From: Paraspadella gotoi
Taxonomy: Eukaryota > Animalia > Chaetognatha
Assembly: GCA_051294375.1 (NCBI GenBank)
Contig: CM119268.1
Span: 18,742,615 to 18,806,614, forward strand
Length of the DNA: 64,000 nt
Reading direction: 5' to 3'
The position numbers and the translations under genes were made by a program. Under the pieces are notes generated by a model. The model was not told the origin of the DNA. It searched no databases and was given only the letters and a program-made list of their open reading frames with translations. The first letter of the stretch is position 1. Every line of letters starts with the position of its first letter. Below, piece after piece: positions 1-62,978 of the stretch.

Positions 1-667
1 TCATGATCATATATATGAACATATTATTATTTTCTAACTTGTTATTCCATACTTTTGGACATATTAAAACAGTATTGTGTACTATCTGTACTAACGTTTC
101 GAGAATTTTCGAAAGAGGTCGAGCCGAAAAGGAAGGCGGACGGATGGGCGCTCAAGCGAGGGAACAGAAAGAACAGGCGCTTGATGGGGAACCATCGAGT
201 CTTCTCTCCCTCACGAGGAACGGAAGCTTAATTTGGAAGGGAATCTGGCGATTAGCGTCACAGACGAAATCAATTGCGATCGATCGACGCGGGTTAATCC
301 GGATTGCAGATGGAAACGGAGTTCGGGAGGCAAGAGACTGAGATTGGAGAAAAGAGGCCCGAGAGTTTGATTGGGTAAATTGGTTAATGTTGTGATTGGA
401 GAAAATAGAGTCTGATTGGAGAAAGAGAATACAAGATCCTCATATCTCATACTTGTGGAGATAAGCTGTGATTGGAAAAAAGAAAAGAATTAAAAAAGAC
501 AATCCTATTGGAAAAAAAGAAAAACGTGTGGAAAATTATAGAGCTTGTTTATTAAATAGGTAATCTTAATATGGTTGTACTGATTGTTGAATGATTATAG
601 AAAAATGGATATTTTATAGCAACGGGAGGATAGCCTGTGATACCCGGGGCGCGGGGTATCTCACCAA

Positions 668-747
668 CTGGCGTAGGGGCTGCGGACCCTCAGTGACCGC
701 CTCCTGTCACTGGCATTTTTATACCGGCACCGTCACATTTAAGCCAG
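668..747 (-). ncRNA. Twister ribozyme, P5-type permutation (copy A1)
   Basis: Minus strand reads P5 CUGGC-uuaa-P2' AUGU-GA-T1 CGG-P1 ugccggua-U^AA-P2 AAAU-GC-P3 CAGUGAC/GUCACUG-P4 AGGG-L4 U CCG CA GC-CCCU-ac-P5' GCCAG. Predicted cleavage 721/720. One P2 mismatch, and L4 has CA where AA is usual. Confidence 0.8.
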
Positions 748-762
748 AAGCGGGATACCCAG

Positions 763-815
763 GGATTGAACCCGGGACGCACGGATGGAATGAGATGATT
801 TAGCCTGCTCAGCCA
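763..815 (-). promoter_or_regulatory. Putative Pol III type-2 internal promoter (A box + B box)
   Basis: Minus strand TGGCTGAGCAGG (815-804) fits TRGCNNARYNGG. GGTTCAATCC (772-763) fits a B box inside a T-arm-like hairpin, 31 nt away. Both motifs are conserved in the copy at 62867-62920. Confidence 0.45.
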
Positions 816-2959
816 TTGAGACGAGGCTGAGGACGGACAGCAGTGAGGCAGCTTTAAGTCTTGCTGCCACAATTTACGGTATTAGGAAAAAGGGAATGAG
901 TTGAAAAAAATAACTTCTTCTAATTTAAAGTGTTTGATTTGAAAATGAATAGAATTTCAGAGGAAAAAATTAAAGGAGACTGAGCAACCAAACCCATGGT
1001 ATAAAGAATGGAACTCGAGATTCCATTCTCGATAAAGTTTTCATAAAGAACCTNNNNNNNNNNNNNNNNNNNNNNNNNNNNNNNNNNNNNNNNNNNNNNN
1101 NNNNNNNNNNNNNNNNNNNNNNNNNNNNNNNNNNNNNNNNNNNNNNNNNNNNNNNNNNNNNNNNNNNNNNNNNNNNNNNNNNNNNNNNNNNNNNNNNNNN
1201 NNNNNNNNNNNNNNNNNNNNNNNNNNNNNNNNNNNNNNNNNNNNNNNNNNNNNNNNNNNNNNNNNNNNNNNNNNNNNNNNNNNNNNNNNNNNNNNNNNNN
1301 NNNNNNNNNNNNNNNNNNNNNNNNNNNNNNNNNNNNNNNNNNNNNNNNNNNNNNNNNNNNNNNNNNNNNNNNNNNNNNNNNNNNNNNNNNNNNNNNNNNN
1401 NNNNNNNNNNNNNNNNNNNNNNNNNNNNNNNNNNNNNNNNNNNNNNNNNNNNNNNNNNNNNNNNNNNNNNNNNNNNNNNNNNNNNNNNNNNNNNNNNNNN
1501 NNNNNNNNNNNNNNNNNNNNNNNNNNNNNNNNNNNNNNNNNNNNNNNNNNNNNNNNNNNNNNNNNNNNNNNNNNNNNNNNNNNNNNNNNNNNNNNNNNNN
1601 NNNNNNNNNNNNNNNNNNNNNNNTCTGAAATTGCAAACGTGTTTCTGTTTTGCTTGTTTTCGTTAAAAAGTAATTTATGTATAATATTTAATAGTTTATA
1701 TACAATAAGTAGTACTGATTGTATATAAAAGTGCATTCATGCATATTTTTTTTATCTCCCCACCATCCCACAAAGCCAAAGGTCATGTCAATATCGAAGT
1801 AGTACAATCGTTACTACTTCTTTTCGCTTTGGGTCGCAAAAGAGTTTTATCGGATTCAATGTTTGTGCCGAATCGGAATCCAGTTGTTGTTGTTGTTGTC
1901 GTCGTTGTTTGCGCCGTTCGAACAGCCTTCCAGGCGATTCTGTTTTCTAAGCGAAAAAAAGTTTGTGCCGACCTGTTTGAGACAAACANNNNNNNNNNNN
2001 NNNNNNNNNNNNNNNNNNNNNNNNNNNNNNNNNNNNNNNNNNNNNNNNNNNNNNNNNNNNNNNNNNNNNNNNNNNNNNNNNNNNNNNNNNNNNNNNNNNN
2101 NNNNNNNNNNNNNNNNNNNNNNNNNNNNNNNNNNNNNNNNNNNNNNNNNNNNNNNNNNNNNNNNNNNNNNNNNNNNNNNNNNNNNNNNNNNNNNNNNNNN
2201 NNNNNNNNNNNNNNNNNNNNNNNNNNNNNNNNNNNNNNNNNNNNNNNNNNNNNNNNNNNNNNNNNNNNNNNTTTTCTCTCTTTTTCTCTGTATTTTCTCA
2301 TTTCCTTCTGTCTTTTTGGGACAAAAAAGTCGATTTTTCGTCCAAAGTGTTTCATCTCAGTCGGTGTTACACTTTCTTTATTTTCTTCACTTTTTTGTTT
2401 TTCTTCATTTCTGTCAGTTTTTCTTTCTTTTTTTTTTTTGCGTCCTTCGCACTTACTCTTCCACGCGTTCTTCTTTCTTATCTCTCCTTTTCTTTCTTCA
2501 CACGACTTTCCTTCGTTTCGTCCTTGACGATTTAAACTTACCTCGACTTAGAAGATTACGTAGTTTAATGTTTTTTCTTATCTTCAACACCTTACCATTT
2601 TTTATGACAAGCTGTATCAGCATTTTATTTCCATTCGACCTTTTCTTCTGCCTTCCTTCCATTTTTCACTTTGATGTTCTTTTACAAATTTACTCTCNNN
2701 NNNNNNNNNNNNNNNNNNNNNNNNNNNNNNNNNNNNNNNNNNNNNNNNNNNNNNNNNNNNNNNNNNNNNNNNNNNNNNNNNNNNNNNNNNNNNNNNNNNN
2801 NNNNNNNNNNNNNNNNNNNNNNNNNNNNTCTCTCTCTCTTTCTCTCTCTCTCTTTCTCTCACTATCGCCCAGTCTCTGTCTCTGTCTCTCTCTTTCTCTC
2901 CCACTTTCACCCTCTGCTGCTCGCTCAGTCTCCGAGCGCAACTTCCTCTGAAAATAAAT

Positions 2960-6961: not shown

Positions 6962-7414
6962 ATCCATTGATTTTTTTCGGGCTACGCGCAAAAGCTTTGC
7001 CCGTGACACATTGACTAGCATCTGAACTGCAAAGTCAATTGGAGAGAGCCAAAGGATGTAAGAGAGAGATAGAGAGAGAAAGTGAGTGAGAGAGAGAAAG
7101 AGAGAGAGATAGAGAGCACATTTGAAGACTGTGTGCGCTAATAAAAAGATATTTCTTAAACATTTTTAAAAGAAAATTATTTAAAAAAAAAAAGAGGCTT
7201 AGAAAAGAATAAGCTAAAATACATCGGTAATTACATGGACGATCACGTGACTACATAACTATGTAATATATGTATAACAAATGTTCTATGGTTTAATCAC
7301 TTATATGCAAAGTTTTAACCAAAACAACCAAATATTATACAAAATCACAATATCTACAAAATATACTATGGCAACAGCCGGGTTGCCTGTGATGCCCATT
7401 GGGATGGGGCAGAT

Positions 7415-7498
7415 GTTAGCTTTTGGGGGCTTCCGACCCTTAGTGACGCGCTCCAGTAACTGGCGCGGTTACCCTAGGACGGTCTCCGCTTTGCCAAC
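7415..7498 (-). ncRNA. Twister ribozyme, P5-type permutation (copy B1)
   Basis: Minus strand reads GUUGGC-aaa-GCGG-a-GA-CCG-UCC ua GGG-U^AA-CCGC-GC-P3 CAGUUAC/GUCACUA-AGGG-U CGG AA GC-CCC-caaaa-GCUAAC. Canonical L4 with T1 CGG/CCG. Predicted cleavage 7471/7470. One extra A before GA. Confidence 0.8.
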
Positions 7499-7891
7499 GC
7501 AGAGGGAAGTCGTTAGGACTTGGATGAACACTACGCTTGGGATGTGTGTTCCCCTCTGAGCCAATGGATTTGGCTGAAGGACGGTGGATGTGAGGCAGTG
7601 TGAATATACCACCACAGGATCCCCGGGCCAAGACATCACTCAGGTTCCTCAAGCCAGAGAGGTGTCTTGACAAGACTGTTACCATAGTGGGAGAGAGAGG
7701 AGAGCGCGAGTTGGGGGGGATAGGCGTTTGTTGTAGCGACTACCCAAGGGGTATAGGCGTTTGTCTTATACGCAGATACCGAAGTCGGAGCATAGTCGTC
7801 GTAGCGTACCCTGAGAGGTGCGTGTTTGATAGTAGCACCACTTATGGCAACAGCCGGGTTGCCTGTGATGCCCATTGGGATGGGGCACTCA

Positions 7892-7962
7892 GTTGGCTGG
7901 GCTTCCGACCCTCAGTGACGCTCCAGTCACGGAGCCACAAGGACGGTTCTCGCTTTTCCAAC
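7892..7962 (-). ncRNA. Degenerate twister ribozyme (copy B2)
   Basis: Retains P5, P3, L4 (U CGG AA GC) and the T1 partner CCG, but the UAA cleavage motif and P2 strand are missing as assembled. Confidence 0.5.
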
Positions 7963-8319
7963 GCAGAGGGAAGTCGTTAGGACTGGTAATGGACAACCGG
8001 AGGTGCGCCTGAGCCATGGATTGGAAGGCCAAGGAGGAGCATAGTGGAAACCGCCACAATACCATATTTATTTTATGATTATGCGACTGTATTTTTATTT
8101 TGTCATGTGATAAAGGAAGTATGATACATAAGCACAAGAAGCATTTACTTATTAACTTAACTTATTAGTCTCCAAAATGTCTAAGTCTTTCATGTATTAG
8201 GCAAATCATCATATGATCGCTTTTTGATTATGTGAATGTACAAGTATGATACATATGCATATGAAAGATCTTTTGGTACGTCACCCTCCTACCGAATGAT
8301 AACTTCATTGATGCTGTAT

Positions 8320-8385
8320 TACCGACCGACCGACCGAAAAATCATTTTTAGTTGCTCCGCGAGTACACGCGGCGCAACTAAAAAA
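8320..8385. repeat. HINE-related terminal palindrome with (ACCG)n
   Basis: TTTTAGTTGC...GCAACTAAAA inverted repeat; the end CGCGGCGCAACTAAAA matches the end of the element at 4465-4782. Confidence 0.5.
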
Positions 8386-9428
8386 AGAGGAAGGCGTCGA
8401 CTGGGATAGACTTAAGTCCATTCGTCAACCGACGAAGTCTAAAGTCTAAACGACCGAAATCTCTTAATCTTGTTTTCAATTCGGCCGCGCCTGAGACGAA
8501 GCGATTCTCGGCTTAATCGAAGTCAAGTGTAGCTATCGATGATTATCATTGGGAGAGATGTAGATCGAGAAGTCAGCAAACAGGTGGAAAATAGGGAAGA
8601 ACAAATGAATTGATTCGTGTTAATTGGGTCTGAGAAGATGGGAAGGGGAAGAAACGGTAGGAAACTTCAAATATACATAGAAAAGAATAATAGGAAATTA
8701 ACTAAATTAAAAGTTTAGTCAAATGAAAATTAAAAAAAAGTTAAAGAGGAAAAGAGCAAAATAGGAAAATAAATATAAAATTAATATGAATATGGAAAGG
8801 GAAATGAAATTAAGCGTGTGAAAAATACAGGAAGAAAAAATATTAAAACTCTAAACTTTAAATGAATTTAGTTATGTAGGGCAGACTAAAAAGAGAAAAG
8901 AACATTAAAGGGAGGAAAGAAAAGAAAGAAAACGCGATTAAAAAGACATAAAAAAGGATCCCGAAAGGTCGCACCATGGCCTTCGGTTGACCTTTTGTTT
9001 GGCCTCAAAGTCACAAACCGGCGAAAGTTCGGAAGAAAAACAGAGTCCTTTTCCTTCTCGTAAAATCTCCGTTAAAAAGAATTAAGCGAGACGTTATTTT
9101 TTCGCTTTCATGAAATATTTATAAGGCTCCGTTAATTACCATAAATCTTTGTCGTAAAAAGTTGGAAAAGCTTCGAGAAGATTCCAGAATATCTCACGGT
9201 TGAACTTTTTCAACTCTGCGTTGATAACTGTTTTTCTTGTTCTTCTTCTTTCTACTTTTTCTACTAACTGTAATTTTATTATTTTGTATTTTCACTTATC
9301 ATTATTTATCTTTTATTCTCTTCATTCCAGGCGAACTCATGCATCCGCAATCTTCCTCTATACTCTAATGACCTTTCGCACCGGAGAGATTCTCACTCCA
9401 ACAGACAACTCCCCCCCTTTTCACGCTC

Positions 9429-11716
9429 CTAAACTGACCGCAGGCCCGGATAAAGGCTCGCGCGTGGCGGGTGTTCCCGCTCCTGTCCCAAAGCGCCTCA
9501 CCAGCGACACCTCACGGTACATAATCTCCGTCGAGTAAACGCGCCCGAAATGAACCCTGAGACGAGAGGAAGTGGATTGAGAGGAAAATGAGAGGGCACT
9601 GAGAAATGAAGGAGCGGACTAGTATAAATGTTGCAGGTGGTGGCACCGAAGATGAACCATTCTTAGTTAGGAAAATTGTGGGATGAGGGGAAACGAAAAA
9701 TGGTAAATTGGGTGTGTTAAAAGCAAGCGAAACTTTACATATATTAATTTAATGTTAGACATAGTGTCTGTCTAATGCCGAAAATGTACGTCTAAAAACT
9801 TGAATAAATAGAATCGTAGTAATCTCAAATTAACTACAACGTCTCTTCTGATTATTTACCATGATACACTTGGTACAGTTCGGGGGTAGAAATTATATGT
9901 TTTGTTTATAAAGAAGGTTAGTAGAACATATGTATTTTGAGTCTTTACTTGTCGAAATCTTTCACAAGTCAGGAGAATTTTTGAGTCGTTGCGTGTGGTT
10001 AGAGAGAAGAAGATATCAACGTTATGAACTAAAAATAATGAGTCAGCACATAAAGAGTTAAAAGAGAGTTCCTTGAACAAATTATTTCCATGTTCCTATT
10101 AATATGGCAATATATAAATATAATATAATTATAATATAATATATATATAATATAGCGGCAGCTTCCTTATGACCACCAATTAACATAGAGTGGAGCACCA
10201 AGAACAAAAATTTATTTGAGTGATTTGAACAACTGATATTTAAGATTGTGAGATAGTAATGATTAACTAATATAAAAAAATTTTTGTTCATATTATCTCG
10301 GGAACAGAATAGTAAAATATAATATATTTATAGTATATCTTATAAAATAGTAAATTTTAAAAATAATTTTAATAAAACTTTTATAAAGAATTCAGTATTC
10401 TGTCATACAAACAAGGTTGAATCAAAAAATATAAAACATGTTATCAAAAATTCTGTCATCTTAAATGTTTTATAATAAGAAAAAAGGTGAAAATTCTTTG
10501 ACTTTTTTAATTCTCTGTAGTAGAAACTTATATTATGTTTAACACGTTTTAGTCATTTTTTGTGGATCTAAACATTGAAATTATCATATAAATATTTTAT
10601 AAAATGTTCTAGTTTTGATTGCGAATCCAAATCAGTTCTTAAATAAAAAACAATTATTTTGAATTTGACGATTTTATAAAGGATATTACTACATAAATAA
10701 TTGAATTTGCTATAAACTGTTATGCTAAAAAAAATTTTAAAAGGATTAAAAATTCATTAATTATATGTCTCATAGGTCAGCAAATAAATAATGTTCAATC
10801 ACTCAATCTTTTCAATCACTCCACCCTAATCCATAAGTAGTAGCTTCCCCCACCTCCCACCTCACCACATGCTTCCTGTCCAGCCATTCTGTCTTCGTCG
10901 TGCAGATAAAGAATTGGCTCTTGTTCGTGTTGGGCCCCGCGTTCGCCATCGACAGCACACCGGGTCCAGAGTGTTGCAGGTGAAATTTCGTCGTCGAAGG
11001 GCTGACCGTAGATGCTCTGACCCCGTGCCGTCGCTCGGGTGAAGTCCCCGCCTGGAAAAGAGAGGGGAGAGGCTTTTAGTGAAAGAATAAAGAGGAAGTG
11101 TGGTTGATAGAGAGGTAAAGTCGTTTAATAGAGAGGAAGTGTTGTTGAAAGATAGGTAGCGTTGATAGAGAGGATTATATTTTAATGACGTAGTGGGAGA
11201 GGAGTGTCGATACAAGTAGAAGGGAAGTAGAGAGAAAAGAGGAGGATAGAAAGGGAGGAGAGGAGAGAGAGAGGAGGAAATAGAGAGGAGAGAAGAGGAG
11301 GAGATAGAGAGGAGAGGACAGGGACGATAAGGGCGTTGATGAAGAGCAACTGGGAAGAAGTTTTTGGAAAGGTTTAGAAACTCTTTCCAATAAAAAGGTC
11401 GAGCTTTAGTTTAAAAGATAATGATAATTCAAGTTCTTTACATACAATTTGCACATACTGAGAGAAAATATAACTTGTGAGACAAATGTTGTATTTACTT
11501 AAACCTCAAAAAAAAAGAAAAACTTGTCGTAAACACCGACGCTTCTCTGTCCAACATACTTAGAGCGAAGCTTAAGTCTCTTTCAATCACCCGAGCGCGA
11601 GTATTAATAGCGGCGAAAAATGAACAACGAGAGAAAAAAAGGACAATAACAATAAAGTCAACAAGGAAGCAAAAGAGAGACTAAAAGCGTGCGTAGAAAC
11701 GACTTCCGAATGTAAA

Positions 11717-11755
<39 letters not shown>

Positions 11756-12684
11756 CAAGAAAGAAAGAAAGAAAAAAGAAAGAAAGAAAGAAAAGAAAGA
11801 AAGAAAGAAAGTAAAAAAAAGAAAGAACTAATGGCTAATAGCGAGAAAGTAAAATTGGCTGGGAAGATAGACGACGTTCGCGGGTAAGTGAATTAACGAG
11901 AGTAAGTCACGTAAGCATGGACTTATTCTGTTGTCTGTGTTGTCGTCAATTATTAAACTGTTTCGTCACTGAATTATTACCTAATTGTTTCAGTCCTCGG
12001 AATTTGTTAAGGGGAGAAGGCCACAGAAACAATATTTTCATTATCAAATTAAATTATTCGCTGACGAGCAGAAAACAGAGTCATTGTGGAGCGAGAATAA
12101 AAAAACACAAAAAAAAAAAACAAAAACAAAAGAACAGAGGGATTACCACTGAGAACCGTAGAACCAGTGAAAGAGAGAGAAATATGAAATTCTCATTTTT
12201 ACTTTTTAATCGAAAACATATGAAAAACAAATAAATAACAACGAAGTACGTAGTTAAAGGAAAAATATTATTTGAAAATTAAAAAAAGAAGGTCAAAATA
12301 GTAGAAAAACTAAAATTTTACGCTCAAAAATAGTGTTAAATACGTATAGGTTTTAGTATTTTTGAAATATTTTGAGAAAAAAGAAATTTTGATATCTTTT
12401 ATTCATTTGCTATAATTTAATCTAAAAATAAAATATAAATAAACTTTTTCACTTTACTTTCCACCATCCCGAGTTCCTCACCCTAACTCACCTGAATCAT
12501 AAACCGAGGGATGATGCGGTGTGGAAGGCGCTGCCTTGTAATCCGACCCCTTCTTCCCGTGCAGAGAAGCGGAAATTCTCGGCGTTTTCGGCACCACACG
12601 TCCGGCCGAAGCCTCCATGGTGATGCGTCCGGCGTCGTACTCGCCCGAGGAGAACGTCGAAATAACGCGAGGCAGAGCTGACAT
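9429..12684 (-). pseudogene. Frameshifted inverted copy of the cyclophilin gene (pseudogene or error-laden assembly duplicate)
   Basis: Exons at 12684-12492, 11051-10866 and ~9556-9429 mirror the + copy but carry many single-base indels typical of unpolished long reads. Confidence 0.75.
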
Positions 12685-13225
12685 TTTGGTTTTCGTTGTT
12701 TTGTTTTGATTTTTATTAGTTTTTTTTTGTTTTTATTTTTTATTTTTTCTTTATTTTTTTAGATTAATTCCCCTTTTATATATTTAATTAATAATTTGTT
12801 ATTTCTTTGTTTTCAAATCACTGTTTTTATTCAAGGCTAGTAAAGTGAAAATAGAGAAAAATGAGGTAGGTTGAGCTTTTGCCGGGAAATTATTTTTTTA
12901 TCTTTATATTAGTAAAATTTTTAATCGTCTCAGTCTCTGTCACGCTGTCTCTGTCTCTCACGCCAAATCGTTTTTTCCGCAAAGAAATAAAAAAAAAGAT
13001 AAAGAAATGCGAACGATCGTTGATTTAAGGAGAAAGCTCTCAGTCTCGATCTCGCTCCACGTCTCGCTCTCTCGCTCTCCATTTTTCTTCACTCTTCTCT
13101 TTTCTCTCGCTCTCATCGCTCTCTCGCTCTCGCAACGCCCACTCGGTCTCGTTCCGGTCGCGAGCGCGTCGGCGTCGAAAATGACGGAGACTGAATTTCT
13201 TTTCCGCTGCTGAGGTTTATCGTTT

Positions 13226-13258
<33 letters not shown>

Positions 13259-14134
13259 CAAGCTCCTCGTTAGTCGTCGTTAAGGTCAACGCAAGAGACT
13301 CGAGTAATCAGCCGTCGTCGTTGTTATATTCGTTGTTTGTTTTGTCGTATATGTGGTTTATAAATCAACAAGTGCCTTCGTCGTCGTCGTCGTCGTCGTC
13401 GGCGTCGTTGTCATGGGAGACGCCCTTCGATGAGATTAAAAATTTCGTGCGAAACACCTATTTGTTTGTTTTTTTTTTTTTTTGTTTTTTTTAGATCGAA
13501 GACGCTTTCTCCGATTTAGGAGATTTGTGGTCACGTGATCTAAGATGATTCGAAACGTTTAGTTAGTATTTAATATTTTTAAGGTGAATCGTTTATATTC
13601 CAGTTTTATTCGCGAAGAGACGTCGTTTCCAGTGACGCCTGAAGAATTAAAGAAAATAAGTTTGAGGAAGAGAAAAAAAAATCTTACCTTTTTCTTTATC
13701 AAGCGGAGATAAACAATAAAAAATTCGTGCTCCTTAATTGCCTCTTCCTCTCCCTCTCCTCTCTCTCTCCTCTCTCCCCCTTCTATCCTTTTTCTTCTCT
13801 TCCCTCCTTCTCCTCCTTTCTTCTTTCTCCCTTTTCCCTTCCTCTCTCTCTCTCCCATTTCTGCTCTTTTCATCTCTCTTCATGTTATTTTCTCTTTTTA
13901 GTCTCTCGTGTTTGTTTTTGGACTGTTTTTCTTTGACACTGCCGATGATAGGGCTCCACAGACGTCGACCAAAACGACGACAGTGACGAAGACCACGGAC
14001 GACGTTGACGACGACGATGACCACGACGAAAACGATGACGTTGACCCCGAAAATATAAAAAACGAGGATGATCCCTAATGGTCAATGGTCGTCGACCAAA
14101 ACGATGCTTATGACCATCACGATTACAAATACTC

Positions 14135-14162
14135 AATAATATAATTATAATAATAATAATAA

Positions 14163-14208
<46 letters not shown>

Positions 14209-14210
14209 TA

Positions 14211-14249
<39 letters not shown>

Positions 14250-14275
14250 TAATAAATAATAATAATATAATATAC

Positions 14276-14310
<35 letters not shown>

Positions 14311-14350
14311 TAATAATAATAATAATAATAAAATGAATAATATAAATAAT
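14135..14350. repeat. (AAT)n microsatellite
   Basis: Direct reading; shorter mirror copy at ~17460-17540. Confidence 0.9.
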
Positions 14351-14549
14351 AATAATATTAAATAAATATTAATGATGATAGTAATGGTAATAATGATAAT
14401 GATAATAACAATCAAAAGTAAAAAACGACGACGACGATGACGACGACGATCATAATACATCAGGATTTCTCTGCCGTTGATGAGAATTTTATCTTATGAA
14501 ATTTTTCCTAGTGCTTTTTTGTTTGTTGTTGTCTTATCTTTCTCTCTCA

Positions 14550-14631
<82 letters not shown>

Positions 14632-15792
14632 CTCCGAGTGTGTCACTTTCATCTTCACACATTCTTTGTTTCTCGGGACAAAGAAATTTTTTCACCACCA
14701 GGATTTTCTCTCCTAATTATATATTATTTATATATTTATAAACGCAAAACTTAGTTCCTTTTATTGTTTTAACATTACGTAACGTCTTGAAGTAAAAAAT
14801 CTCGCACAACATTTAATGAAACAAATACATGATTACGATCAATTTGAAAATTAAAAAAAAAACTACTGTAATAACTTTTCATTACATAATTGATAAGTGG
14901 TTTAAGGCTAATATTCATCTATTGATCAATGATAATCATTATCTTTTTTTTAAGTCACTCGGTATTTCCGATTTTTATTTTCGTCGCGTTAGGCGTCGAA
15001 GATATCTCGTCTCGATTGGCAAAGCTTGTATCGCTTGGCAGACGCCTATTTTGCTTGCCTCATTCGCAATTTAGCTTTCATTAGGACGAAACCCCTCGTC
15101 GTTCGGTCCTCAAGGTCGCGAAAGAGAATAAAGCATTTGTTTTATTTTTTTCTCTCCTTCGTTTTTCTTTCGTTTCTTCCTTTGTTTTGTTGTTTTTTTC
15201 TTCTTTTGTTCCCCCGAGAAACTTGTTGCATCATTAAGCGGAAAGGAGGCTAAACGGATTAATCAGTAGGAGACAGTGAGAAAAAAGGTTGAGGCGGTGA
15301 GAACGGATGGAGGCGGGTGAGGCCGGTGAGGTGAGGGGAACAGAAGGTCAGATTCTTGAGAAAGAGAGAAAAGCGATTGAGTCCGACTTTGTTTAGATGA
15401 AGTTGATGGGGAGGGTGAGGGGGTTGGTTGTTGTTATTGTCGTTGTTGATGCTTGCTTGCTTGCTTGTTTGCTTGCTTGCTATTGTCGTTCGTGGAGATT
15501 GAGATTTGGGGGATGAGATGAATGCGATGGTGAAGTTGGTAATCCCATTATGAAATTTAAAGAAACATATTATTTTGCTAAAATAATATTAATCTGATTC
15601 GAAATATGGAGAAGAGATATTTCATTTTTTAATAAAAGAACATATAAAGATGGATAAGTTGAGGAGAGAAGGAAAGATGTGAGAACTCAGTCGTGATAAG
15701 TGAAGGAAGTGAAAGCGAATCACAGTCCTCGTGCAAACGTGTATCTCTCTGAAAATGGAATCGAGGGAGACGTGGGACTGGCACACACACAC

Positions 15793-15865
<73 letters not shown>

Positions 15866-15900
15866 TTATAATAAAAGAGGGAGAGAGAGAGAGAGAGAGA

Positions 15901-15972
<72 letters not shown>

Positions 15973-16005
15973 AAAGCCAANNNNNNNNNNNNNNNNNNNN
16001 NNNNN

Positions 16006-16043
<38 letters not shown>

Positions 16044-17231
16044 GTGTGTGTGTGCCAGTCCCACGTCTCCCTCGATTCCATTTTCAGAGAGATACACGTT
16101 TTGCACGAGACTGTGATTCGCTTTCACTCCTCACTTATCACGACTGAGTTCTCACATCTTTCCTTCTCCCTCAACTTATCCATCTTTATATGTTCTTTTA
16201 TTAAAAATGAAATATCTCTCTCCATATTTCGAATCAGATTAATATTATTTTAGCAAAATAATTATGTTTCTTTAAATTTCATAATGGATTACCAACTTCA
16301 CCATCGCATTCATCTCATCCCCCAAATCTCAATCTCCACGAACGACAATAGCAAGCAAGCAAACAAGCAAGCAAGCAAGCATCAACAACGACAATAACAA
16401 CAACCAAACCCCCTCACCCTCCCCCATCACTTCATCTAAACAAAGTCGGACTCAATCGCCCTTTCTCTCTTTATCAAAATCTGACCTTCATGTTCCCCTC
16501 ACCTCACCCGGCCTCACCCGTCCTCATCCGTTCTCACCGCCTCACCTTTTTTCTCATGTCTCCTACTGATTAATCCGTTTAGCCTCCTTTCCGCTTAATG
16601 ATGCACAAGTTTCTCGGGGAACAAAAAGAAGAAAAAAACAACAAAACAAAGGAAGAAACGAAAGAAAAACGAAGGAGAGAAAAAAAGTAAACAAATGCTT
16701 TATTCTCTTTCGCGACCTTGAGGACCGAACGACGAGGGAGTTTCGTCCTAATGAAAGCTAATTGCGAATGAGGCAAGCAAAATAGGCGTCTGCCAAGCGA
16801 TACAAGCTTTGCCAATCGAGACGAGATATCTTCCGACGCCTAACGCGACGAAAATAAAAATCGGAAATACCGAGTGACTTAAAAAAAAGATAATGATTAT
16901 CATTGATCAATAATGATTAGCCTTAAACGACTTATCAATATGTAATGAATAGTTTATTACAGTAGTGTTTTTTTTTTAATTTTCAATTGATCGTAATCAT
17001 GTATTTGTTTCATTAAATTAAATGTGTGCGAGATTTTTACTTCAAGACGTTACGTAATGTTAAAACAATAAAAGGAACTTAAGTTTGCGTTTAAAATATA
17101 TAAATAATATATAATTAGGAGAAAATCCTGGTGGTGAAAAAATATTTCTTTGTCCCGAGAAACAAAGAATGTGTGAAGATGAAAGTGACAACACTCGGAA
17201 GAGAGAGGAAAGGAGAGAGAGAGAGAGAGAG

Positions 17232-17287
<56 letters not shown>

Positions 17288-17478
17288 TCAGAGAAAGATA
17301 AGACGAACAACAAACAAAGAGCACAGGAAAAAAAATTTCATAAGATAAAATTCTCATCAACGACAGAGAAATCCTGATGTATTATGATCGTCGTCGTCAT
17401 CGTCGTCGTCGTTTTTTTACTTTTGATTGTTATTATCATTATCATTATTACCATTACTATCATCATTAATATTATTAA

Positions 17479-17539
<61 letters not shown>

Positions 17540-18058
17540 GGAGTATTTGTAATCGTGATGGTCATAAGCATCGTTTTGGTCGACGACCATTGACCATTAG
17601 GGATCATCCTCGTTTTTTATATTTCGGGGTCAACGTCATCGTTTTCGTCGTGGTCATCGTCGTCGTCAACGTCGTCGTGGTCTTCGTCACTGTCGTCGTT
17701 TTGGTCGACGTCTGTGGAGCCCTATCATCGGCAGTGTCAAAGAAAAACAGTCCAAAACAAACACGAGAGACTAAAAAGAGAGAAATAACATGAAAAACGA
17801 GAGAGAGAGAGAGAGAGAGAGGCAATTAAGGGAGCACGAATTTTTTTATTGTTTATCTCCGCTTGATAAAGAAAAAGGTAAGATTTTTTTTCTTCTTCCT
17901 CAAACTTATTTTCTTTTAATTCTTCAGGCGTCACTGGAAACGACGTCTCTATCGGAATAAAACGATTTCACCTTAAAAATATGAAATATAACTAAACGTT
18001 TCGAATCAATCTTAGATCACGTGACCACAAATCTCCTAAATCGGAAAAGCGTCTTCGA

Positions 18059-18106
<48 letters not shown>

Positions 18107-18885
18107 AAATTGGTTTTCGCACGAATTTTAAATCTTCATCGAAGGGCGTCTCCCATGACAACGACGCCGACGACGACGACGACGACGACGAAGGCACTTG
18201 TTGATTTATAAACCACATATACGACAAACAACAACAACGAATATAACAACGACGACGGCTGATTACTCGAGTCTCTTGCGTTGACCTTAACGACGNNNNN
18301 NNNNNGGAGCTGCTGTTGTGGTTGCTGTTGCTGCTGCTGTTGTAAAGCGATAAACCTCAGCAGCGGAAAAGAAATTCAGTCTCCGTCATTTTCGACGCCG
18401 ACGCGCTCGACGCCGGAACGAGACCGAGTGGGCGTTGCGAGAGCGAGAGAGCGAGAGAGCGAGAGAAAAAGAGAAATGAGTGAGAGAGCGAGAGAGCGAG
18501 ACGTGGAGCGAGATCGAGACTGAGAGCTTTTCTCCTTAAATCAACGATCGTCGCATTTCTTTATCTTTTTTTTATTTCTTTGCGGAAAAACGATTTGGCG
18601 TGAGAGACAGAGACAGCGTGACAGAGACTGAGACGATTAAAAATTTTACTAATATAAAGATAAAAAAATAATTTCCCGGCAAAAGCTCAACCTACCTCAT
18701 TTTGCTCCTATTTTCACTTTACTAGCCTTGAATAAAACACTGATTGAAAAACAAAATTAAAACAAAAGATAAAAATTATTAATTAAATATATAAAAGGGG
18801 AATTAATCTAAAAAAATAAAGAAAAAATAAAAAATAAAAACAAAATAAAAACTAATAAAAATCAAACAAAACAACGAAAACCAAA

Positions 18886-19078
18886 ATGTCAGCTCTGCCT
18901 CGCGTTTATTTCGACGTCTCCATCGGCGAGTACGACGCCGGACGCATCACCATGGAGCTTCGGCCGGACGTGGTGCCGAAAACGGCCGAGAATTTCCGGC
19001 TTCTCTGCACGGGAGAGAAGGGGGTCGGATACAAAGGCAGCGCCTTCCACCGCATCATCCCTCGGTTTATGATTCAGG
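18886..19078 (+). CDS. PPIA: Cyclophilin A-type peptidyl-prolyl cis-trans isomerase, exon 1 of 3
   Basis: [64 protein letters not shown](G); phase-1 donor G|GTGAGT at 19079. Symbol denotes the family (PPIA-like), orthology not established. Confidence 0.93.
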
Positions 19079-19788
19079 GTGAGTTAGGGTGAGGAACTCG
19101 GGATGGTGGAAAGTAAAGTGAAAAGTAAGATTTTAGTCTTTCTGTTTATTTATTTATTTTTAGATTAAATTATAGCAAATGAATAAAAGATATCAAAATT
19201 TCTTTTTTCTCAAATATTTCAAAAATACTAAAACCTATACTGTATTTAACTTTGAGCGTAAAATTTTAGTTTTTTTCTACTATTTTGACCTTCTTTTTTT
19301 AATTTTCGAATAATAATTTTCCTTTAACTACGTACTTCGTTGTTATTTATTTGTTTTTCATATGTTTTCGATTAAAAAGTAAAATGAGAATTTCATATTT
19401 CTCTCTCTTTCACTGGTTCTACGGTTCTCAGTGGTAATCCCTCTGTTCTTTTGTTTTTGTTTTTTTTTGTTTTGTGTTTTTTATTCTCGCTCCACAATGA
19501 CTCTGTTTTCTTGCTTCGTCAGCGAATAATTTAATTTGATAATGAAAATATTGTTTCTGTGGCCTTCTCCCCTTAACAAATTCGAGACTGAACAAATTAG
19601 GTAATAATTCAGTGACGAAACAGTTTTAATAATTGACGAGACAACAGACAACAGAGTAAGTCCATGCTTACGTGACTTACTCTCGTTAATCACTTACCCG
19701 CGAACGTCGTCTATCTTCCCAGCCAATTTTACTTTCTCGCTATTAGCCATTAGTTCTTTCTTTTTTTTACTTTCTTTCTTTCTTAATT

Positions 19789-19868
<80 letters not shown>

Positions 19869-20558
19869 TTTACATCGGAAGTCGTTCTACGACGCTTTTA
19901 GTTCTCTTTTGCTTCCTTGTTGACTTTATTGTTATTGTCCTTTTTTTTCTCTCGTTGTCATTTTCGCCGCTATTAATACTCGCGCTCGGGTGATTGAAAG
20001 AGACTTAAGCTTCGGCTCTAAGTATGTATGGACAGAGAAGCGTCGATGTTACGACAAGTTTTTTTTTTTTTTTTCGAGGTTTAAGTAAATACAACATTTG
20101 TCTCACAGTATAATTTTCTCTCAGATGTGCAAATTGTATGTAAAGACATTGAATTATCATTATCTTTTAAACTAAAGCTCGGACTTCGTTATTATGAAAG
20201 AGTTTCTAAACCTTTCCAAAAACTTCTCTCCCAGTTGCTCTTCATCAACGCCCTTATCTCCTGTCCTCTCCTCTCTATCTCCTCCTCTTCTCTCTTCTCT
20301 ATTTCCTCCTCTTCTCTCCTCTCTATTTCCTCTCCTCCTCTTCTCTCCTCTCCTCTCCTTTCTATCTCCTCTTTTCTCTCTACTTCCCTCTACTTGTATC
20401 GACACTCCTCTCCCACTACGTCATTAAAATATAATCCTCTCTATCAACGCTACCTATCTTTCAACAACACTTCCTCTCTATTAAACGACTTTACCTCTCT
20501 ATCAACCACACTTCCTCTTTATTCTTTCCTAAAGCCTCCTCCTCCCTCTCTTTTCCAG

Positions 20559-20749
20559 GCGGGGACTTCACCCGAGGCGACGGCACGGGGGGTCAGAGCA
20601 TCTACGGTCAGCCCTTCGACGACGAAAACTTTCACCTGCAACACTCTGGACCCGGTGTGCTGTCGATGGCGAACGCGGGGCCCAACACGAACAAGAGCCA
20701 ATTCTTTATCTGCACGACGAAGACAGAATGGCTGGACAGGAAGCATGTG
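20559..20749 (+). CDS. PPIA: Cyclophilin A-type PPIase, exon 2 of 3
   Basis: Polypyrimidine tract plus CAG acceptor; [64 protein letters not shown]; donor GTGAGG at 20750. Confidence 0.93.
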
Positions 20750-21402
20750 GTGAGGCGGGGAGGGGGGGGGAAGCTACTACTATGTTGATTGGTGGTCATA
20801 AGGAAAGCTAGCGCTATATTATATATTATATTATATTATATTATATTATATTATTATTATATTATATTATTTATATTATTATATTATATTATATTATATT
20901 ATATTATATTATTATATTATGATAGGACATGGAAAAATTTGTCAAGGAACTTTTTTTAACTCTTTATGTGCGACTATTATTTTTAGTCATAACTATATCG
21001 TTCTTTTTATACCACACGAAGATTACAAAATTTTCACTTGTAAAGATTTCGACAAGTAAGACTAAAAAAAATATTGTATTAAATCTTTATAAACAAAACA
21101 TAAATTTCTACTCCAGAAACTGTACCAAGTGTATCATGTAAATAATAGAAGACGTTTTTAATTTGAGATTACTACGATTTTTTATTTCAATTTTAGACGT
21201 ACATGTTTCGGCTTTAACAATGTCTAACATGTAAATAATATTTAAAGTTCCTTGCTTTTAAAACCAATTTACATTTTTTCCTCACCACAATTTTTCCTAA
21301 CTAAAATGAGTTTTATCTTCGGCCACACCTGCAACCATTTATCTGCCGCTCCTTCATGTCTGCTCCTCTATTTTCTCTCCACTCCACTTCCTCTCCGCTC
21401 AG

Positions 21403-36394: not shown

Positions 36395-36935
36395 GGGTTG
36401 GTGGGAGTGAGAGCTGGAGAGAGTGAATAGTGTTTGTGTGCGGCATGGTGGGCCAGTACAGTGAGGAAGGAAGTGATAGTGGTTTGATGGTGATGGCGGA
36501 GGAGAGTGCAGGAAATGATAATGTTGTGTGATGGTGAGAGTGGTGGGAAGCGAAGAGAGGAGAAGTGATAGTGGTTGGGATGTGTGGGATGTGAGAGTGG
36601 AGGAAAGTGATAGTGGTGCGCTGTGATGCCGTGAGAGGGGTGGGATTGAAGTGAGGAAGTGATAGTGGTTGTGACGTGGGGAAGTGAGAGTGCGGAAGAG
36701 AATGTGATAGTGGTTGGATAGCTGGTGGGAGTGAGATAGTGAGTCGAGTGATAAGTGGGTTGTGCATTGGGGAGTGAGAGGGAGCATGTAGGCCATCTGG
36801 TGGAGTGGGAGTGAGAGTGAAGGAAGTGATAGTGGTTGTGACGGTGTGAGTGAGAGTGAGGAAGTGATAGTGCGTGTGATGGTGGGACGTGGCGGGAGTG
36901 AGAGTAGAGGAAGTGATAGCTGAGTAGTGTGATGC
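36395..36935. repeat. ~39-48-bp minisatellite (GGAAGTGATAGTGGTTGTGATGGTGGGAGTGAGAGT-like)
   Basis: Tandem units; mirrored at 47778-48255 and 53945-54240; source of the His/Thr/Pro-rich ORFs. Confidence 0.85.
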
Positions 36936-43034: not shown

Positions 43035-44751
43035 AAAAAATTAATGATCCACACTATGTACAATTATGTAACTCAGATATACGAGCACCTAAGTGATTAT
43101 CGAGCTGAGATGGCTTTACTCAACTGAGCCATCGGGTCACGACTACGGAAGGTGTCATCCGCTATAGGAGGGGGTGAACCTTAGGCAATCAATTAAAAAG
43201 AAATCTTACTTATATAGTCAACATACGTATAGTTAGCTGTATAAATAACATAGATCGAGTGGTATTATAATCAGGGGACTAATCCCGATAATTGGGTATG
43301 GTAATTTCAATGTTTACTAGCAGCATACTGCAGCTTTCAATTTTTTTAAAATAAAAAAATTAAAGTACTGACTGAATTTTTATTGGCTTGTTATATATAT
43401 AATATAGATTATAATTGCAAGAAGTTAGATTTTTTATTTCGAGCAAATGCCATAAACGTACTCTCTCAATACTACCGATTAAAGAAACCCATTAGGTTGA
43501 TCATGTGTAACTTTTGCACAGGAAGTTGATTTTAATTATTTGGACGCGGAGCAAAAAATGTCTTAAAAACGATTCTTCTGCGATAAAAATTAAACAATTT
43601 TGTAAACAATCGTGCGTAGGGCGAGGATCAATTAAGGGGGTAAGGTTCAAGTCCGAAATCTTATATTAGAGCAGTCTACATTTACAAATAAGTGAGGTAC
43701 AAGGCTATTCTTAGTGTAATGTCAGTCTGTAGAAATTCGATGGTGATGACCATGTTTTTTAGTATTAATATATATATATATGTCGGAAATGACGGGTTTT
43801 ATGTTCGTAACGTTTATAAAATAGGCAACCATTATAAAGTTATGATAAATCAAATTATTAAAATTTTTAAATTTAATATGACTTTTGAATATAAAAATAA
43901 AGTACTTATAAAAATATTTTGGTAAGTTTATTTTCTTAAATTTTAGTTTAAATCTATAAAGTTGTTACTATATATTTATTAATAATTATAAGTAAAATTG
44001 GCTAAAGTAAAAAATAATAATTTCAAAAATTTTTTCATGGATTTGGATCTTTGGCAACAAGTTGATATAAAAGAATATAACTTTGTATATCAAAATTTAT
44101 GTCATTAAGTGTGGTAAAATTCATAAAACTATAGAATCTTAAAGACAAAAATTGAAACAAATTAAACAAAATAGATGAGTTTTTTAATTCTTTTACACTA
44201 CATTATGAAGATTTTTTAATGGATATATTTCTATATCAATTTTTGGTAAGATTCCAAATTCGATTATTAAAATTAAAATTTTTAATTTTCAACTTTAGCT
44301 TTTTTTATTATTATATTAATTATAATATAGTGTACAAACTATTAATGAAATAATAATTTGTAACAAATTACCAAAATATTTATATGCGTCTTTATAGGTA
44401 TGTAGTTTTGCTTCTTGCACTAACTACTTAAGATAACTTGAGTTTCTATAAACTCTACAATGTTTGGCGCTACGAGTTTTAATAGCACGTTATTTGCTCG
44501 CAAAAATCGCCATTTCCGACAAAGAAGAAAATGAGACTGACTACAAAAAGTGATATCATCATCGAATTCTAAGAGAGAGATATATATTATATATATTAGT
44601 ACGTTTACTTGATTTGGTTAATTTCGATTATTTTTCAACGCCACTATATGATTTTTTTCAACGCCCTATATGTTATCGATGTATGTATTGTATATTGTAA
44701 AACTTTTCTGTTCCCATTCTGATAGGCGATCACTAACAAATTTTCTCTCTC

Positions 44752-44787
<36 letters not shown>

Positions 44788-44970
44788 GTCTCTCTCTTCT
44801 CTCTCTTCTCTCTCTCTTCTCACCTCTTCGTCGTCGATTGCATTGACCCCTGGAATATCGTCTCTCCATGGCGAAACGAAGGCGATATAAGCACCGATAT
44901 GAGACTATATCTGAAGAGAGAAAGCAAAAGGAGAAACGAATAACAAAACAAAAGGCCATCAGAAAGGGGG

Positions 44971-45049
<79 letters not shown>

Positions 45050-45283
45050 AGAGAGAGAGAGGTAAAAATACTACATAGAAAAGATAAACTGACACTATAT
45101 CTTGTATATATAAGTATATGATAATAATGATTAGCTCTCAATGATACAGTAACACTTTACATATCTCTTTACAAACTTACCCGATACTCACGAGTTGGAC
45201 GAATGAAAAAAGTCCTTTGCAGCAAAAGGTCGCTGCAGTCTTTGCGGCACATTTTTAGACGGTAGAGAGGAGAGAGAAGAGAG

Positions 45284-45341
<58 letters not shown>

Positions 45342-45538
45342 AGAGGTCAAAAATGTGCCGCAAAGACTGCAGCGACCTTTGCTGCAAAGGACTTTTTCAT
45401 TCGTCCAACTTCGTAGTATGGGTAAGTTTGTAAGAGATATGTAAAGTGTCTAACTGTATCATTGGAGCTAATTCATTATTATCATTACTTATATATACAG
45501 ATATAGTGTCAGTTTATTTTTCTGATGAGTATATTTTA

Positions 45539-45629
<91 letters not shown>

Positions 45630-47540
45630 TTCTCTCTCCCTCCCTTTTCCTGATGGCCTTTGTTTTGTTATTCGTTTCTCCTTTTGCTTTCTCTCTCAGA
45701 TATAGGTCTCATAATCGGGTGCTTATATCGCCTTCGTTTTCGCCATGAGAGACGATATTCCAGGGGTCAATGCAATCGACGACGAAGAGTGTGAGAGAGA
45801 GAGAGAGAAGAGAGAGAAGAGAAGAGTAGAGAGAGAGAGAGATGAGAGAGAGAATGAGAGAGAGAGAGAGAAAATTGCTAGTGAAATCGCCTATCAGAAT
45901 GGGAACAGAAAGTTTTACAATATACAATACATACATCGATAACATATAGGGCGTTGAAAAAAATCATATAGTGGCGTTGAAAAATAATCGAAATTAACCA
46001 AATCAAGTAAACGTACTAATATATATAATATATATCTCTCTCTTAGAATTCGATGATGATATCACTTTTTGTAGTCAGTCTCATTTTCTTCTTTGTCGGA
46101 AATGGCGATTTTTGCGAGCAAATAACGTGCTATTAAAACTCGTAGCGCCAAACATTGTAGAGTTTATAGAAACTCAAGTTATCTTAAGTAGTTAGTGCAA
46201 GAAGCAAAACTACATACCTATAAAGACGCATATAAATATTTTGGTAATTTGTTACAAATTATTATTTCATTAATAGTTTGTACACTATATTATAATTAAT
46301 ATAATAATAAAAAAAGCTAAAGTTGAAAATTAAAAATTTTAATTTTAATAATCGAATTTGGAATCTTACCAAAAATTGATATAGAAATATATCCATTAAA
46401 AAATCTTCATAATGTAGTGTAAAAGAATTAAAAAACTCATCTATTTTGTTTAATTTGTTTCAATTTTTGTCTTTAAGATTCTATAGTTTTATGAATTTTA
46501 CCACACTTAATGACATAAATTTTGATATACAAAGTTATATTCTTTTATATCAACTTGTTGCCAAAGATCCAAATCCATGAAAAAATTTTTGAAATTATTA
46601 TTTTTTACTTTAGCCAATTTTACTTATAATTATTAATAAATATATAGTAACAACTTTATAGATTTAAACTAAAATTTAAGAAAATAAACTTACCAAAATA
46701 TTTTTATAAGTACTTTATTTTTATATTCAAAAGTCATATTAAATTTAAAAATTTTAATAATTTGATTTATCATAACTTTATAATGGTTGCCTATTTTATA
46801 AACGTTACGAACATAAAACCCGTCATTTCCGACATATATATATATATTAATACTAAAAAACATGGTCATCACCATCGAATTTCTACAGACTGACATTACA
46901 CTAAGAATAGCCTTGTACCTCACTTATTTGTAAATGTAGACTGCTCTAATATAAGATTTCGGACTTGAACCTTACCCCCTTAATTGATCCTCGCCCTACG
47001 CACGATTGTTTACAAAATTGTTTAATTTTTATCGCAGAAGAATCGTTTTTAAGACATTTTTTGCTCCGCGTCCAAATAATTAAAATCAACTTCCTGTGCA
47101 AAAGTTACACATGATCAACCTAATGGGTTTCTTTAATCGGTAGTATTGAGAGAGTACGTTTATGGCATTTGCTCGAATAAAAAATCTAACTTCTTGCAAT
47201 AAACAAATATTATAACAAGCAATAAAAATCAGTCAGTACTTTAATTTTTTTTATTTTTAAAAAAATTGAAGCTGCAGTATGCTGCAGTAAATTGAATTAC
47301 CATACCAATTATCGGGATTAGTCCCCTGACTTATAAACCATCGATCTATGTTATTTATACAGCCTAATATACTATGTTACTAGTATAAAGTAAGATTTCT
47401 TTTAATATTGCCTAGGTTCACCCCGCCTATAAGCATGACACCTTCAGTCGTGACCCGATGGCTCATTGAGTAAAGCCATCAGCTCATGATCACTAGGTGC
47501 GTATATATATACATACATGTACATAGTGTGGATCGAATTT
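43035..47540. repeat. Fold-back palindrome centred ~45305 on a (GA)n tract
   Basis: Arms are near-identical (identical 77-aa ORFs at 43692-43925 + and 46690-46923 -); the left arm is also a direct copy of ~37180-39450. Confidence 0.9.
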
Positions 47541-49811: not shown

Positions 49812-49946
<135 letters not shown>

Positions 49947-50771
49947 GAATCGAATCCCAGTGGACTGAAAAGAAAAGCGAGGGAAGTCTCTTCGTCAGGA
50001 ACGCGGTCATCTCTGCTCGTTTCCGCAACAAAATGAAAAGATGAGTTTTAGTTTTGTTTGTTTTTTTTTCTTTTCTTAGTTTTGTTTCATCCAATAAATT
50101 TAGTTTAACGTTTAATTCAAACATATAAATGTTTGCTTAAAATTTATGATGCTTGTTGTCTCAACCCCGTAAACTGCTTGTTTTTTTTCGCAACCTTGTC
50201 TTCAATCACCTGAACGATAACAAAAGACAAGGACTCGAAAAAATGGGAAATTTTTTTAGCAAAAGAGTAAAAAGAAAAAAAAAAGAAATAAAAGGGAAAA
50301 AGGAGAAATGTGAAAAAAAGAAAAGAAAAAAAAGGAAACAAAAAATTCAAGTGAGTCCGAGGTCAAACGAAGGAATTGAAGAGAAAAAAGGGAAAGAAAA
50401 AGGAAGTATAAATCTTACACTGCGGCGCAAAAAAAAGAAGACACTAGGTAGCTTCTAATACACCATTATTTCTTTTTTAATTTTGAGAAAATATATATTA
50501 AAAGTATAGCTCTTTTAAAGAGCTATCGGTCGGTGCAAGAAAAATTTGAATTTGTTCTGGAAGTAGTATAGAGCAAGACTCTAAAGTCAGAGTCTCAGAA
50601 TGGAATTGGGAAAAAGTGATTTCTAAAGGTTAGTATTGTTGATACTTTTTTTCTGACTGATGTTTATAATATAGAACTAAAAAAATCATAATAAAAGGGT
50701 TGTCAATAAATTTGTATTACTTTTTTATAAAAATATTTTTGAATTGCTACCAAATATTGCATTTTAATAAT

Positions 50772-51509: not shown

Positions 51510-51549
<40 letters not shown>

Positions 51550-51963: not shown

Positions 51964-51998
<35 letters not shown>

Positions 51999-55863: not shown

Positions 55864-55947
<84 letters not shown>

Positions 55948-57822: not shown

Positions 57823-57908
<86 letters not shown>

Positions 57909-62729: not shown

Positions 62730-62978
62730 GGAGGGTAGCCTGTGATACCCGGGGCGCGGGGTATCTCACTAACTGGCGTAGGGGCTGCGGACCCTCAGTG
62801 ACCGCCTCCTGTCACTGGCATGTTTATACCGGCACCGTCACATTTAAGCCAGAACGGGATTACCCAGGATTGAACCCGGGACGCACGATGGAATGAAGAT
62901 GATTTTAGCCTGCTCAGCCATTGAGACAAGGCGGAGGACGGACAGCAGTGAGGCACTTTAAGTCTTGCGTGCCACAAT
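62730..62978 (-). mobile_element. Twister-ribozyme-bearing structured repeat, subfamily A copy 2
   Basis: Near-identical to 625-873 in unrelated flanking sequence, with the same CCACAAT boundary. Confidence 0.75.
62773..62852 (-). ncRNA. Twister ribozyme, P5-type permutation (copy A2)
   Basis: As copy A1 but with fully paired P2 (AUGU/ACAU). Predicted cleavage 62826/62825. Confidence 0.83.

Follow-up and report, generated by a model that had tools for sequence, protein, structure and literature searches.

Retrozymes and the locus under study

The long terminal repeat (LTR) retrozymes of plants share the layout of TRIMs (miniature retrotransposons with terminal repeats), with an interior flanked by two LTRs, and carry a ribozyme in the LTR (Cervera et al. 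2016, PMC4918200). For their RNA, which is devoid of the terminal redundancy called R, the same report proposes circularisation followed by reverse transcription around the circle, and it describes retrozyme RNAs as more than 70% paired. Animal retrozymes are presented as elements without LTRs, primer-binding site (PBS) or polypurine tract (PPT) (PMC7229834, PMC7761336); the non-LTR retrozymes of PMC7229834 are low-GC tandem repeats lacking these three features and having longer target-site duplications (TSDs), and animal retrozyme monomers are ligated by RtcB in vitro. The present analysis concerns a 692-bp element at positions 7367..8058 of a 64,000-nucleotide stretch of the chaetognath Paraspadella gotoi (GCA_051294375.1, contig CM119268.1, positions 18,742,615 to 18,806,614), the whole of which is hereafter called the window. 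The architecture of this element is very probably that of a non-autonomous LTR element of the CsRn1 type with a twister fold. By analogy with the plant elements, a modest balance of confidence favours a TRIM-like LTR retrozyme in which a twister replaces the hammerhead and which spreads by way of an RNA circle.

Among retroelements, twisters have been described for the Perere-3/RTE non-LTR elements (PMC8501958; PMC9695139), and the accounts in PMC7761336, PMC8501958 and PMC9695139 place them only in non-LTR elements; they also occur in viroid-like circles of metatranscriptomes (bioRxiv 2022.07.19.500677). Their recognised features include a U-A cleavage dinucleotide in loop L1 with a conserved G opposite (PMC8501958, PMC6154101), while a P5 stem is present in about 1% of annotated twisters (PMC6154101). 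The reported hosts of CsRn1-like elements are trematodes, insects, an annelid and cephalopods (sources including PMC2582038). Hallmarks of these elements are a tRNA-Trp PBS, 4-bp TSDs, and termini that begin with TGT and end with ATA or AAA (PMC2582038). Across the literature searched, the LTR-retrozyme design has so far been described only for plants, with a different ribozyme, and no paper was found that reports ribozymes in the LTRs of CsRn1 elements. Searches of Creative Commons papers in PMC and of bioRxiv likewise listed none that describes a twister in LTRs, although elements of this kind may already be recorded in Repbase, Dfam and the supplements of the original twister survey. Some animals are known to have TRIMs that lack a ribozyme.

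Terminal repeats, target-site duplication and interior

Nine sequencing runs from three studies contain the stretch, and the contigs of four of them (X1, X3, X4 and X9) were compared with the assembly. Run X1 may be the assembly's own sample; none of the runs is recorded as RNA, and X9 is guessed to be RNA, its contigs being used as sequence and not as evidence of expression. Summed contig depth served only to recognise highly repeated sequence, not to give a copy number.

The first-pass annotation had described two same-strand units 476 bp apart, and this spacing is exact: the repeats start at 7367 and 7843 on one strand, their first 45 nt are identical, and their similarity is 82.6% over 155 nt. 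They are LTRs, with ends fixed at many genomic sites. The 3' LTR (B1; 7367..7616, minus strand, 250 bp) runs from TGT to ATA on the minus strand, and contigs exit from both of its ends into unrelated AT-rich flanks, 135 in X1, 99 in X4 and 27 in X9 at 7367, and 56 in X1 and 15 in X9 at 7616, where X4 is not listed; the termini are therefore fixed at many sites. In X1 the LTR has a summed depth of about 1e5-1e6 and the flank one of about 90, which marks the LTR as highly repeated. The 5' LTR (B2; 7843..8058, minus strand) measures 216 bp as assembled and is deletion-rich. Its alignment with B1 gives 193 matches in 259 columns with 14 mismatches, the gaps amounting to 43 in B2 and 9 in B1. Read cover is low at 7990-8073, and few contigs of this highly repeated family lie over the 5' half of B2. 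The damage to B2 is probably sequencing error; long-read error is the likeliest cause of the deletions, and old decay is also possible.

The tetranucleotide ATAC (plus strand) stands immediately outside both LTRs, at 7363..7366 on the left, where X3 record 9 (7240-7390) matches without differences, and at 8059..8062 on the right, where X1 record 8 (8050-8278, 0 differences), X3 record 16 and X4 record 24 cover it. Between the LTRs lies a single-copy, non-coding interior of 226 bp as assembled (7617..7842, minus strand), and no Pfam match was obtained in the 10 stop-to-stop frames across the element (among 91 frames tested). The GC content of the 692-bp block is 56%, compared with 28-32% in the flanks. 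Short direct repeats occur inside the interior, at 7715-7731/7748-7764 and at 7654-7664/7810-7820. A short interior without coding sequence, enclosed by two direct terminal repeats, corresponds to a TRIM-like layout, with an LTR identity that is low as assembled, mostly through gaps, and so do the short TSD and the fixed termini at dispersed sites.

Two relatives in the window are here called family A. Copy A1 (615..871, minus strand) is a solo LTR of 257 bp with TGT...ATA ends and the TSD ATTT on both sides; A2 (62730..62976, minus strand) is truncated at its 3' end. A1 and A2 are identical in 238 of 251 columns, and family A agrees with B1 in 170 of 271. Exact 4-bp TSDs are thus present at both of the two insertions that have both ends intact, the chance of such a four-letter flank match being about 0.007 for the 692-bp element and about 0.010 for A1.

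These features bear on the class of the element. The first-pass annotation had read the locus as a head-to-tail tandem, the signature of a non-LTR retrozyme. The duplication takes in only some 250 of the 476 nt and the 226-nt middle is present once, which amounts to about 1.45 periods; Tandem Repeats Finder has no entry between 7116 and 10112. The whole-unit tandem without LTR, PBS or 4-bp TSD that characterises metazoan non-LTR retrozymes is not what is found at this locus, and the element does not fit that class as it is described in PMC7229834, PMC7761336 and PMC5680766. A related possibility, a non-LTR retrozyme or tRNA-derived unit resembling a short interspersed nuclear element, in partial tandem and moved by Penelope-like machinery or that of a long interspersed nuclear element (LINE), would account for the 476-bp period and for the tRNA-like A and B boxes of family A, and the tRNA inside schistosome retrozyme repeats (PMC4918200) offers a precedent. 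It is nevertheless highly improbable, since the termini are fixed at TGT...ATA, the TSDs are short and exact, a solo-type relative exists, a PBS-like motif and a single-copy interior are present, and the GC content is high; moreover, the boxes are not at the 5' end of the unit but some 55 nt within it, and no poly-A or simple-repeat tail follows.

Probable affinity to the CsRn1 clade of Ty3/Gypsy

The ends, the duplication and a primer-site-like motif, taken as sequence features, point to the CsRn1 clade of Ty3/Gypsy. The PBS-like motif (7829..7840, minus strand) begins with TGGTG two bases past the 5' LTR and resembles the tRNA-Trp PBS of CsRn1 elements; four contigs of X1 carry four extra letters at this place, after which 11 of 12 letters match the CsRn1 PBS given in PMC2582038. 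The TGT...ATA ends together with the 4-bp TSD are those of the clade, while a CHCC Gag or a placement by reverse-transcriptase phylogeny is not available, as no coding match lies within the element. For the same reason the element could only be a non-autonomous client of the CsRn1 clade.

Compared with the described members, among them PwRn1 and AgCR (PMC2582038), the present element is alike in its ends and TSD and in a candidate PBS motif, and its LTR length falls within the 146-383 bp of the published table rows. It differs in lacking gag and pol, and its flanks are AT-rich, whereas no target preference was seen in that study (PMC2582038).

A predicted type-P5 twister in the LTR

On the minus strand of B1, at 7415..7498, a type-P5 twister is predicted from a descriptor and from the order of motifs relative to the Rfam twister-P1 consensus. 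This order is P5 - P2' - GA - T1' - P1' - P1 - U^AA - P2 - GCC - P3 - P4 - L4 - P4' - P5'. The stems would be formed by P5 (7498-7493/7420-7415), P2' (7489-7486) with P2 (7468-7465), P1 (7479-7477/7474-7472), P3 (7461-7456/7447-7442) and P4 (7439-7437/7428-7426), and the pseudoknots by T1 (7482-7480/7435-7433) and T2 (7464-7463/7430-7429). Of these stems a twister requires P1, P2 and P4, P3 and P5 being optional, and both pseudoknots start from loop L4. Cleavage is predicted between U7471 and A7470, with G7484 as candidate general base. The earlier proposal of a twister fold in each unit is thus borne out for B1, which has the complete type-P5 arrangement; B2, already noted as lacking UAA and P2, retains P4/L4 and the T1 partner and is missed by the descriptor. 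The U-A dinucleotide in L1 with the conserved G opposite is found in B1, A1 and A2, and not in B2 as assembled.

The descriptor finds three sites in the window (B1 at U7471, A1 at U721 and A2 at U62826), whereas 200 dinucleotide shuffles of the window and 5000 of the element give none, a significance that is somewhat overstated because the descriptor was built after the copies were known, from general twister features and the shared motif. When the four copies of the two families are aligned, 87.9% of cells are paired, against 32-44% in slid controls. T1 is 100% paired with one two-sided change, its middle pair being C-G in family B (B1 and B2) and G-C in family A; T2 is 87.5% paired, P1, P3, P4 and P5 are 90-100% paired, and P5 and P1 each show a two-sided change between families. 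These cross-family changes, drawn from two families only, are suggestive of a twister but do not amount to a statistic. Contig letters agree with this picture: at the P3 mispairs and P5 wobbles of B1 most read depth carries the pairing letter, no substitution at or above 25% is listed within 7459-7485, and in three studies most of the read depth keeps the core letters UAA, GA, GC, AGC and T1. A minimum free energy fold of B1 alone misses the twister (z -0.84), which is to be expected of an RNA with pseudoknots.

Other readings of the same sequence were considered. Hammerhead and hepatitis delta virus ribozyme readings of the LTR 5' hairpins, examined by eye, have no Rfam support, and the plus-strand orientation was set aside, as it offers neither a TGG after the LTR nor a twister pattern.

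A proposed circle route for replication

The mechanism proposed for this element would begin with minus-strand transcription, perhaps by RNA polymerase III (Pol III), with tRNA-like boxes within the LTR as promoter. Each LTR would then be cut at its U^A, which would release an RNA of about 480-500 nt with a 5'-OH and a 2',3'-cyclic phosphate and without R. Since the predicted ribozyme occupies the same place in both LTRs, double cleavage would deprive the RNA of the terminal repeat that strand transfer requires. A host ligase of the RtcB type could close this RNA into a circle, and a reverse transcriptase primed by tRNA-Trp could cross the ligated junction and rebuild a full LTR without strand transfer. 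Reverse transcriptase and integrase would be supplied by a CsRn1-clade Ty3/Gypsy helper, whose existence we infer, with insertion producing the 4-bp duplication, and solo LTRs may arise through recombination or from short cDNAs. Two parts of the earlier retrozyme reading are retained, the twister fold and the logic by which a pair of ribozymes spaced by one period would free an RNA of about 476 nt that could circularise; the non-LTR class is abandoned.

Promoter-like motifs would suit the first step. In both family A copies a full A-box/B-box (T-arm) pattern, in a form of the general consensus narrowed after the sequence was known, lies directly upstream of the twister (two matches, 0.01 expected), at 815-763 in A1, where the U^A is at 721, and at 62920-62867 in A2, whose twister has a fully paired P2 and its U^A at 62826. 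The full pattern matches family A copies only; B1 and B2 as assembled show an A-box-like motif alone, in B1 at 7556..7563 (minus strand), upstream of the ribozyme, which could belong to a tRNA-type Pol III promoter. ARAGORN reports no tRNA gene. The RNA strand of the element contains no run of four T, the first one lying 6 nt downstream, which would be in keeping with Pol III reading through the entire unit. Folded as a circle, the minus-strand period gives z -2.85, compared with -1.0 for the plus strand, and interior positions 7690-7676 are predicted to pair with the junction of LTR 3' end and PBS (7836-7856).

Counter-evidence and competing explanations

It is important to set against this route a number of observations that weaken it, some concerning the ribozyme itself. 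As assembled, B2 contains no complete ribozyme, UAA and P2 being absent. Rfam gives no match at gathering score anywhere in the window: B1 has no twister match at E values up to 10, and A2 alone is weakly matched by twister-P1 (18.4 bits, where the gathering score is 67.2; E 0.097), so that B1 and A2 both remain below the family threshold; the A2 alignment takes in UAA, GCC, P3, P4 and L4 but not the permuted half. P2, perfect in A2 and 3/4 paired in A1, is bulged or mismatched in family B and 56% paired in the common register. In the window it has four pairs with a bulged A beside the active site, and in a form one letter shorter, which accounts for about half of the depth in X1 and 96% of that in X9, three pairs and a C-A mismatch. 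The imperfect P2 of family B and the missing Rfam match of B1, along with a C in loop L4 of family A where the Rfam consensus has A, would be explained if the twister-like fold of family B were now inactive, as a relic or kept for another purpose, and the element moved as an ordinary TRIM. This is considered improbable, because the core letters are conserved in the bulk of read depth and T1 covaries between the families.

The ends and the assembly raise doubts of another kind. The contigs at the outer junctions extend just 9-24 letters into the LTR, below the 31-letter rule, and among the contigs listed none bridges 7842/7843 or spans the element. Depth on the PBS side of the interior is about 100-fold below that on the PPT side, and full two-LTR copies may be a minority. 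The full PBS match is confined to the four X1 contigs and does not appear in X4 or X9. As PPT there is a short G-run entering the LTR start (7612..7624, minus strand), a weak PPT-like junction whose G-run, 7624-7621, is not clean as assembled, and no helper element was found within the window. An assembly artefact, in which noisy long reads gave a solo LTR or two separate loci the appearance of one element with two LTRs, would agree with the missing bridge, with contig cover that is near zero at 7733-7786, with the deletion-rich B2, and with the 14 N gaps and large inverted duplications of the window. It is very unlikely all the same: the same tetranucleotide stands at both outer ends, both flanks are matched by short-read contigs, X9 record 31 (7559-7697) bridges the LTR-interior junction at 7616 at family level, and X3 record 14 passes through 7674-7816, differing in 12 letters and by 16 gaps, with a depth of 336 that is close to the 288 of the flank. 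The contig evidence thereby also makes a read-overlap artefact, named at the outset as a possible refutation, unlikely without wholly excluding it. Backward-jumping contig joints were not taken as arrays or circles, as they fit single LTR copies laid over both repeats.

The predicted RNA provides the remaining difficulty. The circle is 55% paired, no more than shuffles, on noisy assembled input, and so falls short of the self-paired monomer value above 70% given for retrozymes in PMC4918200. The low paired fraction would be natural if the twister of the same LTR element only trimmed a linear RNA, derived from read-through or from a Pol III leader, and replication proceeded by ordinary strand transfer with no circle. 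Twister variants are reported to process the 5' end of Perere-3 RNA (PMC8501958; PMC7761336), and a religated type-P5 junction would restore the whole ribozyme, which could then re-cleave. Equal cleavage, on the other hand, would remove R, as the same motif occupies the same position in both LTRs, an argument parallel to that of PMC4918200. Linear trimming is on balance doubtful, yet deserving of attention, and the same standing is given to its extended form, in which the 3' copy cuts slowly or never and the LTR may derive from an autonomous CsRn1-type element.

Comparison with described systems and significance

With the circle-forming LTR retrozyme as the preferred reading, the plant LTR retrozymes (PMC4918200) are the closest described counterpart. 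They share with the present element a non-coding LTR-interior-LTR layout with a ribozyme in the LTR, the 4-bp TSD, a PBS (here a candidate one) and solo LTRs, a GC content above 55% and an inferred Ty3/Gypsy helper. The plant elements carry a type III hammerhead, a tRNA-Met PBS, LTRs of 300-400 and a period of about 700, whereas here a type-P5 twister is predicted, the PBS is tRNA-Trp-like, and the corresponding lengths are about 250 and about 476; A/B-box-like motifs in the LTR further set apart the present element, which is known from its sequence alone. No hammerhead in the LTR is matched by Rfam. By analogy, the element would work like a plant LTR retrozyme without belonging to that group in its original, hammerhead-based definition.

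The metazoan non-LTR retrozymes (PMC7229834) are likewise short, non-coding and multi-copy, with ribozymes a few hundred nt apart, and differ in their tandem arrays, type I hammerheads, GC below 50% and longer TSDs. In Schistosoma, Perere-3 and RTE twisters (PMC8501958; PMC7761336) also tie the twister fold to a retroelement, but there an autonomous LINE carries it, single and often P1-less, at its 5' end; the present element is a non-autonomous LTR element with a predicted P5-permuted twister motif in both terminal repeats, incomplete in B2 as assembled. Cassandra (PMC12486564) is a TRIM with a Pol III-type promoter domain in its LTR, though 5S-derived, from plants and with no ribozyme described in that account, while the present LTRs combine tRNA-like boxes, clear only in family A, with a twister fold.

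A broader proposal can be put forward tentatively, as something short of an even chance: an animal lineage of LTR retrozymes comprising at least two diverged CsRn1-type LTR families, in which a tRNA-derived Pol III promoter is followed by a type-P5 twister and R-region strand transfer has been replaced by ribozyme cleavage and circularisation, independently of the plant hammerhead retrozymes; the same LTR may also sit on an autonomous Gypsy helper. If this were true, the ribozyme-plus-circle route would have arisen again, with another ribozyme and another Gypsy clade, and the rare P5 permutation of the twister would gain a biological role. The system lets the dispensability of the R region in LTR elements be tested directly, and would be a natural counterpart of the tandem-twister constructs for circular RNA expression mentioned in PMC7229834.

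Wider scans and other features of the window

A core-motif scan of viral contigs returned no match. In metagenomes the same motif matched twice (L001 and L002), over 21-23 nt of GC-rich, apparently bacterial coding DNA, and both were set aside for want of wider similarity or a twister pattern. A CsRn1-PBS pattern found 25 loci in viral contigs, none with element similarity, twister pattern or LTR-like repeat.

To the right of the element, at 8326-8400, lies a further element that is highly repeated; its boundary near 8350-8384 is fixed, 134-191 contigs in X1, X3 and X4 having loose ends there. A tetraspanin exon (63223-63372; PF00335, E 6e-8), intron-bordered and followed by a GT donor, is situated about 250 bp from A2. 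One search with this exon returned no hits and another only eukaryotic clusters drawn from several phyla; cyclophilin hits gave no information on the host. Very large inverted duplications occupy 10847-20768 and 43431-47184, with a cyclophilin piece on both arms and a perfect arm pair of 1276 nt, and are suggestive of amplification or of long-read fold-back artefacts. A direct duplication of about 6 kb (47700-52300 and 53900-58100), possibly an uncollapsed haplotype, includes a 39/48-bp minisatellite that also occurs at 36470-36890, and the DNA of the window is rich in microsatellites.
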